Below are positions 18,001-24,000 of a stretch of DNA of 42,239 nt, in pieces. A program made the position numbers. This stretch comes from Candidatus Woesearchaeota archaeon (GTDB taxonomy: Archaea > Nanobdellota > Nanobdellia > Woesearchaeales > WAPY01). The stretch covers positions 73,775-116,013 of the forward strand of contig JBNAUL010000003.1 of assembly GCA_049700835.1 (NCBI GenBank), given 5' to 3'. Each line of letters begins with the position of its first letter. The stretch's first letter is position 1.

Positions 18001-21000
18001 TATTTGTATATTCTTCTTTTAAAATTTCTATTAATCCAGAATATATTTTTAGAATTCTTACAGGAACCTTTACTTCAAAATTATTGATTACCCTGCTTGA
18101 TTGTTTGTTGCTTATGGTTATTTCAAATTGCATTCTTACATTGACATTATCTTCTGCAAATACAATATCAAATTTTGGAGTTTTTTTAAAAACAATGTTG
18201 TAACCATAATCTTCTTCTAAAGTTTTAAGGTTTATCTCAAGCATTTTTTTCTCTAAAAAACCTTTTAGTTGTTCTTCGACTGAAAAGCTTGCTTTTGTTT
18301 CTTCACCCATGCACTCATAATATCCAAACTCTGTTTTATAGATTGTAGTCCTGCAAACATACTGCGGAGTATAGTATCCAAAAGCATATTTATTTTCGTG
18401 ATTGAACTTGCAATCAGGATTAACAAAATAACAAGGATAATAAGGTGGTTCATTTAAAACCCCGTAGCTGATTTCTTTTAATTGATATACAACTCTGCTT
18501 TGTTTTCCATCGTTATTTTTCAAAATGGCTGTTTTTATAGCGCTTGGTTTTATAGTTCCTCCTTGGTTTTCAAAGATATATCCGCCTTGAGAACCTATTA
18601 AATAAAGAGCTTCCTCAACATTATTCTTTAAGTAATTATTTACAAACTCCTTAACAACTTCAACATTAATCTCTTCTTCTTTCATTTTCTTTTCTTGAGC
18701 ACTGTTAATCATAAAAAAGTAAAGCAAGCCAATCATAAGAAATATGAATGCTCCTAAGAATATGAATAAACTCAATTGCGATTTCTTGCTTTTTATTTTT
18801 AAAATCATTATTAAAATAAAAAAAGAAGAGAATTTAAAAAAATATCGGTTTTATTCCCAGTCAGGATATCTTCTGTAAAGCGCTAAATCATAACCTTTAT
18901 CTTTGAATTTTCCTTTATCGTCCAATGCTCTTCTTAGAACAATTCTATAATCTTTGTAGAAAACAAAATCAATGATTGGTGTTTTTGTTGTATAAACTGA
19001 TATTTCTAAGTTCTTAGTTTTATCTTCATAATCTTTTTTATCATCTGGTTTCAAGCTTGTAATTTGTGGTTTGTGCTTTAATTCTTTGAATTCATTTATC
19101 CTAAAACTATACTTCATTAAACCAGAATTCTTTTCATCAACAATGCTGTTTCCAGAAATCTTTCTCAATGCAAAATACACACCATGGTCAGTATAATAAG
19201 CGCTGTAAAACTCAGGCGTGTTTGATGCTAGTAAATAAGCCAATTTTCCCTCTTTGGTTGTTGGCACCACAACATTTTTATCTCTAACTCCTATCGCTGA
19301 AATATAATATTCATCTCTCAAACCGTCCTTTGTGTCAACAACAAAGAGTGCCGTAGGTTCAAATGTTGTTTCTTTCTTATCAAGAATTTCATTTATATTT
19401 TTTATTTCTGGTAATACACCGTAAATACTATTAAACCCTCTTCCATAAACTGTGCAATCAAATTTGTTTTCATTATCTTTGCATCTTAATATTTCCTTGT
19501 TTCCAGAGTTTGCTACATAAATGTAATTATTATAAGCTAAAATTCCTTTTGGACTATTAAATTTGTACATTGGTATTAAGCTTGAATCTGCTTTATAACA
19601 ATCAATGTATTTAAACATCTTTTTATTTTCATCAAATGTTATTTTGTGAATACAATTTTTATCAACATCGCTTATGTAAATGTTGTTGTTAATCATTGCC
19701 GCAGAAACCGGTTTTTTCATGTCTTCAAAGTATTGTTTGTAAAGTTCTTGTTCAGTTCCAACAACTCCTTCCTTAAATCCTAATTTTGTTATTGTAAATT
19801 CTGATTGAACAGGCCAGACCTTGGTATTAGTGCTTTTTCCTTGAATGCTAGAAATACTTGGTCTTGGATCTCCTATTTTCCATTTAATGTTGTAGTATGA
19901 AAGCTCTATTTCCGTAATTTTGCAAGTGATTTCATCTGCTGTTTTAACATAATCAACCAACTTATTTGAATCAAATTCCGCGCTGCATGTTTGTACGAGA
20001 TCAAAGTTATCCAACTTTAATTTTGAATTTTTATTTTGTTCAAGTTCAAGATTTATTGTTTCTGTGTAATCACCACAGTCTAATTTTGCAGTAACATAGC
20101 TTACGTCATTTAAATTATATGTGTTATCTTTTGGTTTATTAAAGAAATTTTCACTTGCAATTATTCTTGTTTCAATCTTAAATTTGGCTCCTAAAGAATC
20201 CTTTGCAGGATTAACTCTTAGGTTTAATATTTTTGGGTAGTTTTGATTATAAAAGTCTTCTATATTTTTAAGCATCCAAGCGTATTCTTTGCAAGTTACA
20301 TAAGAATCAGGTTTAAGAGTTCCATCAGGATATCCAACTATTAATACAACATACAACGCATATTTTAAATAGTCCGAAGCCCAGTGGTTTTCAGAATCAG
20401 AGGGCAACTCAACATATTTTAATTCATCTCTCTTTATCCCTCCATACTCGTCCTCTTTTAAATAAAGAGATTTGAGAATTATTACAACAATCTCTGCTCT
20501 TGTTATCTTGTTTTCTGGTTTGAAAGTTTCATCAGGATAACCTTCTACTATTTCTTCCTTATAAGCTTTTAGGATATAAGGATGGTAAATGTTGTCTTTT
20601 CGAACATCTAAGAAAGGAGAGTTTTTATCTTTATAGTTATCTAAATCATTTGCAGTCTTTTTTATTTCAATCAATTTATCTACCAATCTTTTAGTGGCTT
20701 CTGCTCTTATAATATAATCAGAATTCTTAACGCAAGGTTTATATCCTAATTGTTTTCCAGGACCGACCAAAGCATTCCACCTATTATAACAACTTTCCCC
20801 CCAACCTCGGGATAAAAAGTTACTTCCTTTATTTTGTTTGCGCCAACATCGCTTGATTGTTTTAAGGAATCGCAATACAGTCTATAAACTCCTGTGTTGT
20901 ATTCTTTTGAATTTTTCTTTGGATAATAATCATAAGTTTCATCATTGTATTTAATTATGCAGCATCCTTTAGCGCATTTTTCTATATCCTCGCAATTTGG

Positions 21001-24000
21001 ATGAAGAGGATTAAATTCGTTATTCCCGCAATCTTCTTTTGTTTGGCTTGGAACGCACTCTGTTTGCTTAATGCAACAACCCAATTGTGGAGGACAAGGA
21101 TTAGAATTCTCAACATTACTTAAATCAGTAGTTGAGGTTGTTTTTATTTCTCCATCACAGCACCAATAAACAGTCCATACTCTTCCTGAAGAATCACTTG
21201 TATATGTGGTGTTTATTGTTTGAGTTCCGCATTTGCAAGGAAGCTTTGTTATACCTAATAAATATTTTCCTTGTGGGCAAAGATCTTCGCTTTTAACAAT
21301 TCTTACTTCCAAAACAATAATTGTCAGAACCAAAACGAACAAAATTGTTTTATAGAAATCGTTTTTTTGTTTTTTCATAACATCACCTATATAAATTTTT
21401 CCATTTTTTACTTTAGGATTTATAATTTCTTTAAAACTCTTGCCTTGCATAGGGTATAAACAATCATTCCAGAACTCCATGCAAAAGGGTGTTCTGATTT
21501 GTAGTAGTCAGTGAAAACAGGTTTTCCTTTATTGTCGTAAACTTCATAAACTTCATCAAATTCTATTAGTTTGTTTATTATTTTATTCATTATTTTTTCT
21601 GCTTTCTCGTCTTTAATTTTATTTCTTGCAAGAAAATCTAAGCAGCCGATCCATAACCAAGCATGTTCAAAATTATGATAACCCTTCATCCCAATCAGCC
21701 TATTGGCCCAAAAAACAAGTTCTTCAGGATACTCTGGATGGTTTGTTTTTGATGGAACAGGATAATTAATTTTGTTTTTATCAATATAATCTATGATTTT
21801 CCTGCTTTTTCTGTCATCAGCAACATCAAATATTATTGCTAAGAGGTTTCCTTCTGTTGAAAAGTAGTTTTTCCCTGCTGGCAGGAAATCAGAATAGAAT
21901 TCTTTTTCTTCATTCCAAAATTCTTTGTTTATCTGTTTTTTAAGATTAATTGCTTTTTTGTAGTATTCTTTTGCTTCTTGTTTTTTGTTCAGCAAAATGT
22001 TGATTTCTGAAAAATCTTTCAATGCTTTGTAATATAGCAAGTTGCTGTATAATACAAATCCTTGTTTTTTTATTGAATCAGCCCAACTGCAGTAATTATT
22101 CTCCATAATAAACCCAAACTTGTTTTTATTGCAGAAATTATACCATTGAATGCTCTTTCTTATCTTATCATAATTTTTTAACAAGAATTCTCTGTCCTTT
22201 GTTTTATTATAGTATTTAAGGCAAACAATAACAAGCAATGAGTTGGGATCAACGCTCTTTGCTTTTTTGAAAATTATGTCTTTGTCATTATAATATGTTG
22301 GGAACAATTTTCTGTTTTTAGTTTTAGATATTCCAAATGCATCCTCAATTAGTTTTGTTATAACAGACTGCCCAATCGATATTCTCAATGGAATTTGGCC
22401 GTCTGCTCTTTGATAGTTAAAAAAAAGTTCTATGTTTTTTCTAACAATCTCAAAATCTTTAAGTTCTAAAGCTCCAAAACTTGCAAAAAAAGAATCCCTT
22501 GCCCAGTAATCAGAGAAGTGCTGTTTTCCAGCGATTATTCCATTTTCTAAATAACAATTTCTTAGTGATCTTTTTGCTATTTCAAAAGCTATTTTAATAT
22601 TTTTTGAGTTAATCTTTTTCATTTTTTATTTAACGCGCTCAGGGGGATTTGAACCCCCGACCTACAGCTTTCTTAGGATTCTCAGATAACTCTCTTCTTA
22701 CCATTTCAGGTATTTTTAAGTTCTCCTCATAAAATCCTTAGGAGGCTGTTGCCCTTCCAGACTAGGCTATGAGCGCTTTTAAAAGCAATGCTTTCTTTTT
22801 ATTTTAAATATTTTTGTTTTTTGTTATTTTTATTTTGCAATGAATAGAATAATTTTTATATTAAAAGTTTTTTTAAAACTCATCATGAGGGTGCATACTG
22901 ATGCAAATTTCAGTTTTTTAATAATAATTCTTTCAATAACTTTGCTTAGTTTGATAACAGGATTTGAGATGGCAAGATTAGTTGGCTCTCCTTTCCAAGA
23001 TTCAAAGTTCATGTTTTCAGTTCTCTTTCTGGTTTTGTCTATTCTCATAATAAGCGTTGCAATAATGGTTCCTTATTCCCTCTATGTAATCTCCAATTTT
23101 TCAATAATAATTGGAATTCTGAAGTTCATGGAATTGGCTTTTTATTTTGTTTTTAGGAGAAATATTCTCTTAAAAAACTTTGGCATGAGCATTGTTTTAG
23201 GAGAGGTTTTAAGCGCTCTACTGCTTGTAATTGCAGGAATACTGCTGTCAAGGGTTAATGAATAAAGCTTTTGAAAGATTTTCGCAAATTCTAATGCTTT
23301 CTTATAATGCTTTCTTATGTTTAAGTCAATTAAAAATAGATTATTTTAAGCGTATTTTAAGCATTGGTTAAGCCATGCTGAAAAATACGAAAAGGCAAGA
23401 ACTTAAGTCAAGGAATGCAGAGCGTCGCAATACTCATGCTCTTTTGGAAATTTTTTGTGCAAAACTTTTTCGTATTTTTGTATAAACTTAATAATGCGGC
23501 TTTGGTTTAATAGTTGTTATTTAATTTTTTATTTTTTTAGGTTTATTTAAGATTTATGCTGCATCTTTGAATTTTCCAAGAGTTTTTTCATTATTTCCTT
23601 ATGCACATCTTCAATGCTCTGATAACCATTTATTTTTACCAAGAGCCCTTTTTTTTTGTATATTTTAAGAACCGGCTTTGTTTCCTGATTATAAACCTTT
23701 ATTCTTTGTTTTATTGCTTTTGGCTCATCATCAGCCCTCCTTACTAATGGAACCTTGCACTCATTGCACAAAGGAGGTTTTTTAGGATTATAATTCTCAA
23801 TTACATACGGTTTTCCGCACTTAGGGCATTGCATTCTTTTTGATAATCTCTTTATGATTTCCTTTTCAGGAATGTCTATGAGCAAAACAACATCAGGAGT
23901 TATTCCTTTGTTTTCAATTGCTTTGTACTGTTCTAAACTCCTTGGATAACCATTCAGTATGAAACCATTTTTGCAGTCCTTCTTTTTCAATCTTTCAAAC

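Follow-up and report, generated by a model that had tools for sequence, protein, structure and literature searches.

Why a tiny archaeon of symbiotic type should encode an S-layer homology (SLH) module, and to whose surface that module would attach, is the question raised by g00973, a gene call in the window, the 42,239-nucleotide stretch of a Candidatus Woesearchaeota contig analyzed here. The survey's finding had taken the protein for an adhesin directed at the wall of a Gram-positive, Bacillota-like host, and had suspected that g00973 and the overlapping g00974 might be one gene. The features on which the analysis rests are as follows.

17543..18808, minus strand: g00972 (421 aa), downstream neighbor, membrane-anchored, N-terminus taken to be pilin-like, synteny conserved
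18851..21378, minus strand: whole inferred gene (g00974 plus g00973), one internal frameshift, about 840 aa if read through
18854..20233, minus strand: C-terminal beta-rich region of about 430–460 aa, no known family
19208..19711, minus strand: NHL-like part of the C-terminal region, common to the protein of a same-genus genome (G286)
20294..20401, minus strand: SLH repeat 3, from the genome scan (2.7e-6, 28.1 bits) and consensus alignment
20492..20617, minus strand: SLH repeat 2, from Pfam (aa 87–128), the genome scan (8e-13) and consensus alignment
20660..20797, minus strand: SLH repeat 1, degenerate, from alignment to the bacterial SLH consensus; within the Sap/SpaA structural match
20797..20802, minus strand: G6 run on the coding strand and frame-break site; a seventh G would give an orthologue-like reading
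20812..21288, minus strand: Cys-rich module with paired CC motifs and 15 Cys among 160 aa
21289..21378, minus strand: putative signal peptide or signal anchor, basic residues and then about 13 hydrophobic ones, read from the translation
21420..22622, minus strand: g00975 (400 aa), upstream neighbor, six-hairpin glycoside hydrolase (GDE_C / MGH1-like) by Pfam

The SLH assignment is far above chance. On the 674-aa open frame that carries it (18851–20875, minus strand), Pfam family PF00395 matches two stretches, scoring 68.1 bits where the cut-off is 20.8 (E 6.2e-19), and a scan of the entire 1.07-Mb genome places matches only at 20492–20617 and 20294–20401. Where two to three repeats had been counted, there are three, the first of them degenerate. 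Repeat 1 has a short first helix and retains the Trp, the second Gly of GxxxG, and the Arg of its IRAE motif; repeat 2 has a TRAE motif and an Ile at the Trp13 position; and repeat 3 retains the HWA and GY-PDGT core, with TCKE at the TRAE position and hence no Arg.

Structural comparison relied on an AF2 model of an intact orthologue (aa 1–405) rather than of the broken window gene, with pLDDT above 85 over about aa 130–375. The best 13 Foldseek matches were all SLH domains of Sap or SpaA (E 6e-5 to 9e-4). VIA-align against the Sap and SpaA SLH trimers gave Z scores of 14.5–17.3 and rmsd values of 2.4–3.4 Å, with 138–165 of 146–178 residues aligned and the match spanning about residues 194–375 of the model; the next unrelated row had a Z score of 3.9. 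The model has the three-repeat fold of Sap from Bacillus anthracis (PDB 3PYW, 6BT4) and SpaA from Paenibacillus alvei (6CWC and entries related to it), and supports a complete set of three SLH repeats such as has been solved with pyruvylated wall polymer bound. The window protein also retains TRAE-type motifs and, in one pocket, the Gly29 and Trp13 positions. In the sequence alignment this pocket combines the Arg of SLH1, Gly29 of SLH2, and Trp13 of SLH3, the set that defines the primary 'G2' pocket of SpaA in PMC6081394. In contrast to Sap and SpaA, to which sequence identity is only about 20%, repeat 1 is shortened, repeat 2 lacks the Trp, and repeat 3 lacks the Arg, and the full residue set is retained by just one of the three predicted grooves. 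The setting differs as well: the producer is an archaeon without detectable CsaB or murein synthesis, and the SLH module is flanked by an archaeal Cys-rich module on one side and an orphan C-terminus on the other, in a gene that is frameshifted here. We infer that the trimer would bind a cell-wall glycopolymer that is pyruvylated or anionic in a similar way.

The suspicion of a single gene was borne out by the orthologue, P0002 (832 aa), from a related Woesearchaeota-type archaeon, which contains both frames within one ORF and aligns, without a change of frame, at 61% identity to aa 35–223 of g00974 and at 66% to aa 15–674 of the g00973 frame. Both full-length members of its cluster (P0002 and P0270) are intact. 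At the level of sequence, g00974 and g00973 are confirmed as a single gene, which belongs to a DPANN archaeon of Woesearchaeota type. The gene starts at M35 of the upstream frame (21378), which coincides with the orthologue start; with this start the overlap with g00975 disappears, and that call, previously described as a third overlapping frame, is a separate gene. A helix at aa 5–26 of the orthologue model matches the N-terminal signal or anchor region. No Pfam family was found for the Cys-rich module, which is common to P0121, P0148, and a 395-aa SLH-less protein of G286. The C-terminal region had no Pfam or NCBIfam match at E<=1 or E<=0.01, and the orthologue was its sole homologue in the search; a pairwise comparison with the G286 protein gave 27% identity over 182 aa, and the AF2 model of this region (pLDDT 41) is too low in confidence for use. 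Profile searches detected no catalytic domain in the SLH protein. The restored product is predicted to be a chimeric surface protein, either secreted or anchored in the membrane, that combines a putative signal or anchor, a disulfide-rich module, the SLH trimer, and a beta-rich C-terminus specific to the lineage.

The flanking genes are of archaeal type, as previously noted; those identified here are GatD/GatE, CDC48, and TruD. GatE matches were named Candidatus Woesearchaeota or Nanoarchaeota, and the 109,962-nt contig of the orthologue encodes a GatE 79% identical to that of the window genome. Synteny is kept at the orthologue locus (L014), where the order is glycoside hydrolase, gene, g00972 homologue, PPDK. 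Homologues of g00975 are syntenic in L014 and G286 (72–73% identical), as are those of g00972 (72% in L014, 42–60% in G286), whose N-terminal motif, which we take to be pilin-like (a class III signal), also occurs in two paralogues of this genome. Between the glycoside hydrolase (73%) and g00972 homologues of G286 lies the 395-aa protein, with similarity to the Cys-rich module (34%, E 2e-9) and to the NHL-like part (27%, E 1e-6). Because G286 has both parts without SLH, they appear native to the genus, and since this relative lacks SLH at the same position, the trimer occupies a surface-protein slot that is native and variable. The predicted products make the locus a conserved three-gene block of a glycosidase, a variable surface protein, and a pilin-like protein, in which the SLH trimer would be either a lineage-specific insertion or a part lost from the G286 relative. 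At 31.3% GC, the SLH part is near the genome (32.6%) and thus gives no sign of very recent transfer.

Homology places the break in the gene between 20797 and 20811, and one G added at the G6 run yields a reading that agrees with the orthologue residue for residue. The frameshift splits the export signal and Cys-rich module from the SLH trimer, so that the SLH part is without a signal peptide as encoded, as had been remarked of g00973 as called. A one-base loss in the run would thereby switch the adhesin off, and this strain may make no SLH protein. That the break falls exactly in a six-base homopolymer could instead indicate an assembly or sequencing error, the true gene having G7 and being intact, and depth was only about 5 in the one run examined. 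However, an independently built Logan contig of that run (X1), a haplotype distinguished by one nonsynonymous SNP (N51D, the orthologue residue), has the same G run length without gaps, although the contigs that give this DNA support have a depth of about 5x and may derive from samples related to that of the source. P0001 (639 aa), a database copy one residue different from the window, is also called from an internal start (TTG), and this third gene call implies the same split. Moreover, 14 of the 24 G/C runs of at least six in the genome lie well within long intact frames, and the split-gene signature occurs at this run and at none of the other 23. We consider such an error unlikely. Recurrence of the break in the X1 contig and the database call would also suit a decaying relic, that is, a pseudogene in this lineage whose laterally acquired SLH domain is being lost and has no present function. 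SLH is absent from G286 and four other genomes of the family (0/5), and decay would fit the DPANN archaea, whose genomes are small and in which gene loss is common. Against this, the lesion is single, the 674-codon frame 3' of it stays open at a genome GC of 32.6%, and the orthologue is intact in both full-length cluster members. The dN/dS values against the orthologue (NG86) are 0.19 for the SLH region and 0.16 for the C-terminus, similar to 0.22 upstream of the break, with 0.13 for neighboring genes; they are rough, because dS (1.1–1.5) is near saturation, and cannot date the break. Since about 2 kb downstream are otherwise undamaged and under purifying selection, the break appears recent, and we regard a functionless relic as unlikely. 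The run might, alternatively, be a phase-variation tract or a site of -1 ribosomal or transcriptional slippage, some of the cells or transcripts then yielding full-length protein. If the P-site tRNA-Gly slipped from one GGG to the GGG overlapping it, exactly the restored reading would result, and contig breaks between the Cys-rich module and SLH1 in several assemblies hint at population heterogeneity (the end of P0122 lies near 20950, unitigs of X1 break at 20878–20904, and P0269 begins in the same residue region). Nevertheless, the heptamer G GGG AAA is not the canonical X XXY YYZ site, the orthologue has a single frame and no G run there, G/C runs of at least six are not enriched (24 observed versus about 33 expected), and the contigs compared contain no length variant. 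Nothing examined supports a reversible switch at the G6 run, and we deem switching or recoding very improbable.

The remaining alternative concerns the ligand. The SLH trimer might tie the protein to the archaeon's own envelope, through an S-layer glycan or another anionic polymer, and would then be uninformative about a partner. According to PMC6081394, every solved SLH trimer anchors its protein to the producer's own wall, and here, as in many S-layer proteins, the SLH module is near the N-terminal signal. The premise that only bacteria make pyruvylated polymers does not hold, given that the archaeal controls Methanosarcina acetivorans and, at E<=0.01, M. jannaschii have pyruvyltransferase family matches. 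On the other hand, PS_pyruv_trans (PF04230, CsaB-type) is missing from the own genome and from the eight other SLH-bearing genomes of the order (0/9), an absence that leaves room for other pyruvyltransferase types. Likewise, Mur_ligase_M was not found in the own 98.66%-complete genome, in agreement with the survey, and close relatives do without SLH at the same locus. With neither a CsaB-type pyruvyltransferase nor a Mur ligase, a ligand from another cell is therefore the economical reading. It seems unlikely that the archaeon itself would make the canonical ligand, and we judge self-anchoring improbable. The reading we favor, to which we give about an even chance, is that of a secreted SLH chimera, its gene recently broken here, acting as an adhesin that docks on the wall of another cell, likelier a bacterial one. 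The trimer would bind a glycopolymer of that cell, and a bacterium is a more probable partner than an archaeon.

An adhesin for a bacterial wall thus stands in part: the putative signal or anchor, the complete three-SLH module, one pocket set, and the lack of a self-made ligand speak for it, and the interruption of the gene speaks against it. A Gram-positive host is too narrow a claim. SLH control matches were obtained by profile search in Synechococcus, Thermus, Deinococcus, and Thermotoga genomes, and SLH and pyruvyl systems occur in diderm bacteria too. The SLH tethers OmpM and SlpA of diderm Terrabacteria extend SLH-binding polymers well beyond Gram-positive Bacillota, thermophiles included (PMC10628300, PMC9388160); these tethers pair a single SLH with a beta-barrel or coiled coil, whereas the window protein has a three-repeat Sap/SpaA-type module. 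A search for a donor or host identified none.

The general idea that certain Woesearchaeota may attach to bacterial walls has already been published, on the basis of other domains. Giant extracellular proteins with murein-like lytic transglycosylase domains were described in Woesearchaeota and Pacearchaeota, and were proposed to mediate attachment to the walls of bacteria, which may be the hosts (Castelle et al. 2021, PMC8204110). The window protein resembles them in having a bacterial wall-directed domain on a secreted protein of the same archaeal group; in contrast, their domain is catalytic, murein-degrading, and widespread in the group, whereas the SLH module is a predicted noncatalytic anchor that 9 of the 401 sampled genomes carry, in line with the rarity in the order reported by the survey. 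Archaeal modular peptidoglycan hydrolases that kill bacteria, with M23 in four Nanoarchaeia genomes (PLoS Biol 2025, PMC12352652), are comparable in their laterally acquired bacterial wall-binding domains and patchy distribution, but they also carry catalytic domains, of which none was detected here. A precedent for SLH directed at a non-self bacterial wall is the phage endolysin LysBT1, which pairs a C-terminal SLH domain with an amidase (PMC12285257); among the SLH proteins of the archaeal order, such a pairing (Amidase_3 plus SLH) occurs only in a protein of genome G048, not in the window gene. The SLH protein fits, without proving, attachment to a bacterial partner.

Other wall-related domains had been listed alongside the SLH protein. 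Two M23 peptidases are indeed present, but 186 of 401 genomes in the order have this family, which is therefore no special host signal. The adjacency of the M15/VanY peptidase to Lgt was reproduced, and Cu_amine_oxidN1 lies, as reported, on two proteins of more than 1000 aa, in frames of 1071 aa and 1093 aa.

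Four consecutive open frames (400, 244, 674 and 421 aa) occupy the minus strand of the locus:

21420-22622, minus strand: g00975, six-hairpin glycosidase, 400 aa, assigned by its Pfam families
20746-21480, minus strand: g00974, Cys-rich frame, 244 aa, no Pfam match
18851-20875, minus strand: g00973, S-layer-homology (SLH) frame, 674 aa, Pfam PF00395
17543-18808, minus strand: g00972, 421 aa, no Pfam match

The survey's finding had described g00975, g00974 and g00973 as three overlapping frames, with the latter two possibly forming one frameshifted gene. The second part of this description holds. 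P0002, a database protein of 832 aa, is 66% identical over 98% of the query in a word-indexed search, and in BLASTP it aligns with aa 35-223 of the Cys-rich frame (61%) and, further along the same protein, with aa 15-674 of the SLH frame (66%). At the P0002 DNA locus (L014) the gene is one ORF (2201-4699), with homologues of the glycosidase (72%), the 421-aa protein (72%) and PPDK around it. A P0002 cluster member that is just as long comes from a contig of 109,962 nt, which also encodes a GatE 79% identical to that of the window. P0002 is therefore the orthologue of the split gene in a related archaeon. The glycosidase does not belong to it: the true start of the split gene is M35 of the upstream frame, at 21378, which leaves a 41-nt spacer to g00975, a separate gene.

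The overlap of the two frames is 130 nt long, and 20797-20811 is the only interval in which they can be joined. At the join the coding strand carries a run of six G residues (20797-20802), and one extra G restores the reading that matches the orthologue, which has no G-run at the corresponding site. In the window, no single open frame extends from start codon to stop. The break falls about 10 residues ahead of the start of the SLH fold, so that the export signal and the Cys-rich module are cut off from the entire SLH trimer.

The restored protein consists of a signal or anchor, a Cys-rich module, three SLH repeats and a beta-rich C-terminus of ~430-460 aa. In translation, the N-terminus is a basic stretch followed by a hydrophobic helix, which spans aa 5-26 in the model of the orthologue. 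The Cys-rich module contains 15 cysteines in 160 aa and belongs to no family found in Pfam or NCBIfam searches; among longer proteins, P0002 was its sole match, and NCBIfam returned no match for either P0002 or g00972. The C-terminal region has no Pfam match at E<=1, and its only homologues among 1.84 billion representatives are the orthologue pair. By eye it resembles NHL-like motifs, and a weak Atlas match (0.85) leads to a cluster with NHL on 14% of its members. The best ESM Atlas scores, 0.86 for the C-terminus and 0.78 for the Cys-rich module, both lie under the lead threshold, and an AF2 model of the C-terminus from a two-sequence alignment has a pLDDT of 41. Species-representative genomes yielded no confirmed relative of P0002 or of P0121, a more distant member of the group, and no paralogue of the Cys-rich or NHL-like module was found in the genome itself.

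The SLH module is better defined. PF00395 matches the 674-aa frame in two stretches (E 6.2e-19; 68.1 bits, cut-off 20.8), and a six-frame scan of the whole genome (1,071,587 bases, 4 contigs, 98.66% complete) scored it at 49 and 28.1 bits and detected no SLH outside this gene. An AF2 model of aa 1-405 of the orthologue, which is 66% identical to the window gene, was built from a 40-row alignment and exceeds a pLDDT of 85 over roughly aa 130-375. In VIA-align, residues ~194-375 of this model superimpose on the solved SLH trimers Sap (Bacillus anthracis) and SpaA (Paenibacillus alvei) with Z 14.5-17.3 and rmsd 2.4-3.4 A, 138-165 of 146-178 residues being aligned. The next rows were an SLH-bearing S-layer cytochrome (Z 9.8) and unrelated chains (Z <4). 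The three tandem repeats are thus predicted by the model to fold as a three-pronged SLH trimer.

In Blackler et al. (PMC6081394), the ligand residues are SLH-Trp13, SLH-Gly29 of the GIIxG motif and, within the TRAE motif, SLH-Arg43; in the primary pocket of SpaA, repeat 1 supplies Arg43, repeat 2 Gly29 and repeat 3 Trp13.

Ligand-residue positions in the three SLH repeats
Repeat 1: IRAE at the Arg43 position (Arg kept); Gly29 kept; Trp kept, first helix short
Repeat 2: TRAE at the Arg43 position (Arg kept); Gly29 kept; Ile at the Trp13 position
Repeat 3: TCKE at the Arg43 position (no Arg); Gly29 kept; Trp kept (HWA)

Because the arginine of repeat 1, the glycine of repeat 2 and the tryptophan of repeat 3 are all kept, the set of residues for a primary pocket of the SpaA G2 type appears complete. 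A second set, drawing Arg from repeat 2, Gly from repeat 3 and Trp from repeat 1, is plausible, and the third appears to have been lost. P0121, which is 43% identical over aa 94-407 and has a different C-terminus, shows the same pattern of pocket residues. By its sequence, modeled fold and predicted pocket residues, the module can be placed within the known SLH family.

In the best model, this protein would be a chimeric adhesin that docks on a wall polymer of another cell and is currently switched off by the loss of one base; to this we give an even chance. It competes with explanations in which the protein anchors to the archaeon's own surface, the break is an assembly error, the gene is switchable or recoded, or the locus is a decaying relic. 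The canonical SLH ligand requires a CsaB-type pyruvyltransferase, and PMC6801904 describes SLH and this enzyme as functionally coupled in bacteria. The corresponding profile, PF04230, was present in all four SLH-positive control bacteria; it was not found in this 98.66% complete genome, in any of the nine SLH-bearing genomes of the order (its own and eight others) or in the same-genus genome G286. Mur_ligase_M was not found in the genome either, so neither hallmark of bacterial-style self-anchoring was recovered in it, and the survey's statement that murein synthesis is lacking stands as far as this family goes. The archaeon is therefore unlikely to make a canonical ligand itself, and a ligand on another cell is favored. 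In favor of a polymer of archaeal make, PF04230 also matches Methanosarcina acetivorans and, at E<=0.01, M. jannaschii; pyruvylated glycans are thus not exclusive to bacteria, as had been assumed when the protein was proposed as an adhesin for the wall of a Gram-positive, Bacillota-like host. That host is likewise too narrow, particularly for a hot-spring organism: SLH controls were positive in Synechococcus, Thermus, Deinococcus and Thermotoga and negative in B. subtilis, and SLH tethers of diderm Terrabacteria are described in PMC10628300 and PMC9388160. The proposal is supported in part, and the present data link the archaeon to no particular organism.

The remaining alternatives concern the break itself. 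An assembly error would find room in a depth of ~5, in contigs that hide minor variants and in samples that are perhaps not independent. Against it, a Logan contig from X1, a run labeled as a hot-springs metagenome, spans 20300-20904 gap-free in the same split state; its one base difference, T>C at 20725, produces N51D, the residue of the orthologue. P0001, a 639-aa database copy of the SLH frame whose call begins at an internal TTG (20770), matches the window translation at all but one residue, indicating that a near-identical but distinct assembly was likewise called as split. We regard the one-base loss as probably real in the DNA. Programmed -1 ribosomal frameshifting follows a canonical slippery-heptamer rule. 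A gene recoded in this way would slip at G GGG AAA, which is neither a canonical heptamer nor conserved, the orthologue being without the run and in a single frame. A gene switched by tract length would have its site in the G6 run, at which no length variants were seen in the contigs examined, where rare ones would be hidden. The genome contains 24 G/C runs of at least six (~33 expected), i.e., at or below expectation; 14 of them lie well inside long open frames, and a split-gene signature occurs only at 20797-20802. The severed export signal would suit a decaying relic, and the bearing of selection on that account can be read from the comparison with the orthologue.

NG86 dN/dS against the orthologue (rough values, since dS, at 1.1-1.5, is close to saturation)
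Before the break: 0.22
SLH part: 0.19
C-terminus: 0.16
Neighboring genes: 0.13
PPDK: 0.06

Purifying selection has acted on the sequence beyond the break during most of the divergence, and the break is consequently either young or bypassed.

Contigs of several assemblies end within 20878-20950, in the stretch that separates the Cys-rich module from SLH repeat 1: the database relative P0122 stops near 20950, and X1 unitigs break at 20878-20904. P0269, a member of the orthologue cluster, begins at the residue adjacent to the window's internal TTG start. Differences between strains at the junction of the two domains may account for these contig ends.

The locus is surrounded by genes for GatD, GatE, CDC48, TruD, adenylate kinase and an AMP-phosphorylase-like protein, and in a protein search the best named relatives of GatE were 'Candidatus Woesearchaeota archaeon' and 'Nanoarchaeota archaeon'; at the DNA level, GatE matched one 'uncultured archaeon'. 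These genes and names identify the contig as archaeal, of DPANN type. PPDK (14856-17504), counted by the survey among the archaeal flanks, itself looks bacterial-type: it shares 51-64% identity with numerous PPDKs of bacteria, those of Clostridia and Syntrophomonas among them. It is also 79% identical to the PPDK of one archaeal MAG contig, with which the window has the genes upstream of PPDK in common and nothing downstream. The surface-protein block starts exactly where this synteny ends.

The three-gene block is native to the lineage, and the gene in its middle encodes a variable surface protein, since G286 carries a matching block with an SLH-less middle gene. There, a 395-aa protein lies between homologues of the glycosidase (73%) and g00972 (42-60%); it combines a signal with a Cys-rich module (34% identical to P0002 aa 95-167, E 2e-9), a linker rich in sequons and an NHL-like part (27% identical to aa 553-714, E 1e-6). 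Either the lineage of this genome and L014 gained the SLH trimer by insertion, or G286 lost it. Of the genomes sampled in the order, 9 of 401 carry SLH, and none of the five other genomes of the family does. The other eight carriers have unrelated architectures (Amidase_3 with SLH, FAD-oxidoreductase with SLH, weak GH42 with SLH, or SLH alone), and none resembles the window's protein outside the SLH part. The acquisition does not appear recent and no donor can be named, because the GC content of the SLH part (31.3%) is near that of the genome (32.6%) and the closest SLH sequences of bacteria reach only 30-45% identity.

In X1 and a second run, X2, other contigs match 20493-20543, within SLH repeat 2, at 50 of 51 nt (one mismatch), at a depth of 25-46 compared to ~5 for the archaeon. 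A second match lies 195 nt away with 9 mismatches, after which these abundant contigs diverge from the window sequence; they indicate a co-resident AT-rich organism with a tandem-SLH gene that shares the short patch. The patch includes the less-preferred codons TTC, AAC and AAG, and it may be a trace of mosaicism or gene conversion, or a lead to a donor or host. Viral contigs contained no match to it. Soehngenia longivitae, the sole species-genome match to the back-translated 17-aa peptide, was rejected as donor (41/51 nt, 32% over the SLH region); from these alignments we judge the match to be motif convergence.

A fuller version of the docking model, which we consider improbable as a whole, would have a Woesearchaeota-type episymbiont dock on a hot-spring bacterium via the chimeric adhesin. 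The partner would possess a pyruvylated wall polymer and come from, for example, a Thermus/Deinococcus, Thermotoga or Bacillota lineage. A captured bacterial SLH trimer would have been grafted into a native, fast-evolving archaeal surface-protein slot beside a pilin-like gene, and the single G-run break would represent an on/off state of the adhesin within the population.

We know of no DPANN archaeon with a demonstrated bacterial host, and the idea of such hosts has so far been built on murein-directed enzymes in genomes. If true, the fuller version of the docking model would supply a host-recognition determinant defined by sequence, the first for a DPANN symbiosis between archaeon and bacterium, with the SLH trimer as a probe for fishing out the host. 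The ligand of an SLH trimer is narrow and well understood, so a recombinant copy could be used as a stain or bait for the habitat cells that it binds, which would make the open host question experimental. The locus also shows how a surface protein is built, with a bacterial anchor module within a native, rapidly changing slot. It is important to note that the gene is broken in this genome, that the evidence for docking is indirect and that the general hypothesis has already been published. The module differs from known ones in its setting: an archaeal producer without the cognate polymer pathway, the Cys-rich/NHL-like scaffold, the pilin-like neighbor and the frameshift in the strain. Within the text it covered, a full-text literature search found no discussion of SLH in DPANN or Woesearchaeota, and in an S-layer preprint that contains both terms the single mention of SLH is unrelated to the DPANN passages.

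Of the other wall-directed modules listed in the survey, the two large Cu_amine_oxidN1 proteins and the two M23 proteins, the latter without known wall-binding domains, were recovered in Pfam searches. Cu_amine_oxidN1 is a family trait (4 of 5 genomes of the family compared to 10 of 401 of the order), and M23 a trait of the whole order (186 of 401 and 5 of 5, a tally that takes in the unpublished genomes G245, G274 and G304). At G000:C2:332511-334147 (L017 455-2091), the peptidase reported as VanY/M15 does adjoin Lgt, a bacterial-type prolipoprotein diacylglyceryl transferase (E 9e-54); the peptidase matches the D-Ala-D-Ala dipeptidase family (Peptidase_M15, E 9e-20) better than VanY (E 4e-8). 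These modules fit the published picture of Woesearchaeota with bacterial wall-directed proteins, as presented in PMC8204110 and PMC12352652, and indicate no specific host. In another genome of the order, an 82% complete MAG with possible contamination, an 18-kb contig carries a 1025-aa open frame with Amidase_3 (E 2.6e-20) and SLH (L107, G048:C66, 3239-6313, plus strand), a predicted peptidoglycan hydrolase with an SLH wall-binding module.

In the neighbor g00972, its orthologue and two paralogues, a K-[GAS]-Q-[LI]-S-type motif is recognizable by eye. Such a motif, after a few basic residues at the N-terminus and ahead of a hydrophobic helix, marks archaeal type IV pilin-like proteins (class III signal peptide), to which g00972 may belong. 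The paralogues, at 24% identity, are located at G000:C2:321230-323104 (L111 8230-10104) and G000:C3:16262-17110 (L112 4263-5111); they share with g00972 the form K-K-[SA]-Q-[LI]-S ahead of the helix and a 'LIGxQGGYI' motif. The 624-aa paralogue ends in a Hint/intein-like module (E 1e-6) and directly adjoins a 1067-aa Cu_amine_oxidN1 protein, and the other adjoins an orphan protein of 959+ aa; the g00972 family may pair with large surface proteins. At the far end of the window, the last 2.4 kb (39831-42239) shows extreme strand skew (GC skew +0.6 to +0.7, AT skew -0.45) and holds an open-ended frame of >803 aa. A single metal-binding motif of MopE type (E 3.8e-7) lies in this frame, which probably encodes a large, repetitive surface protein.
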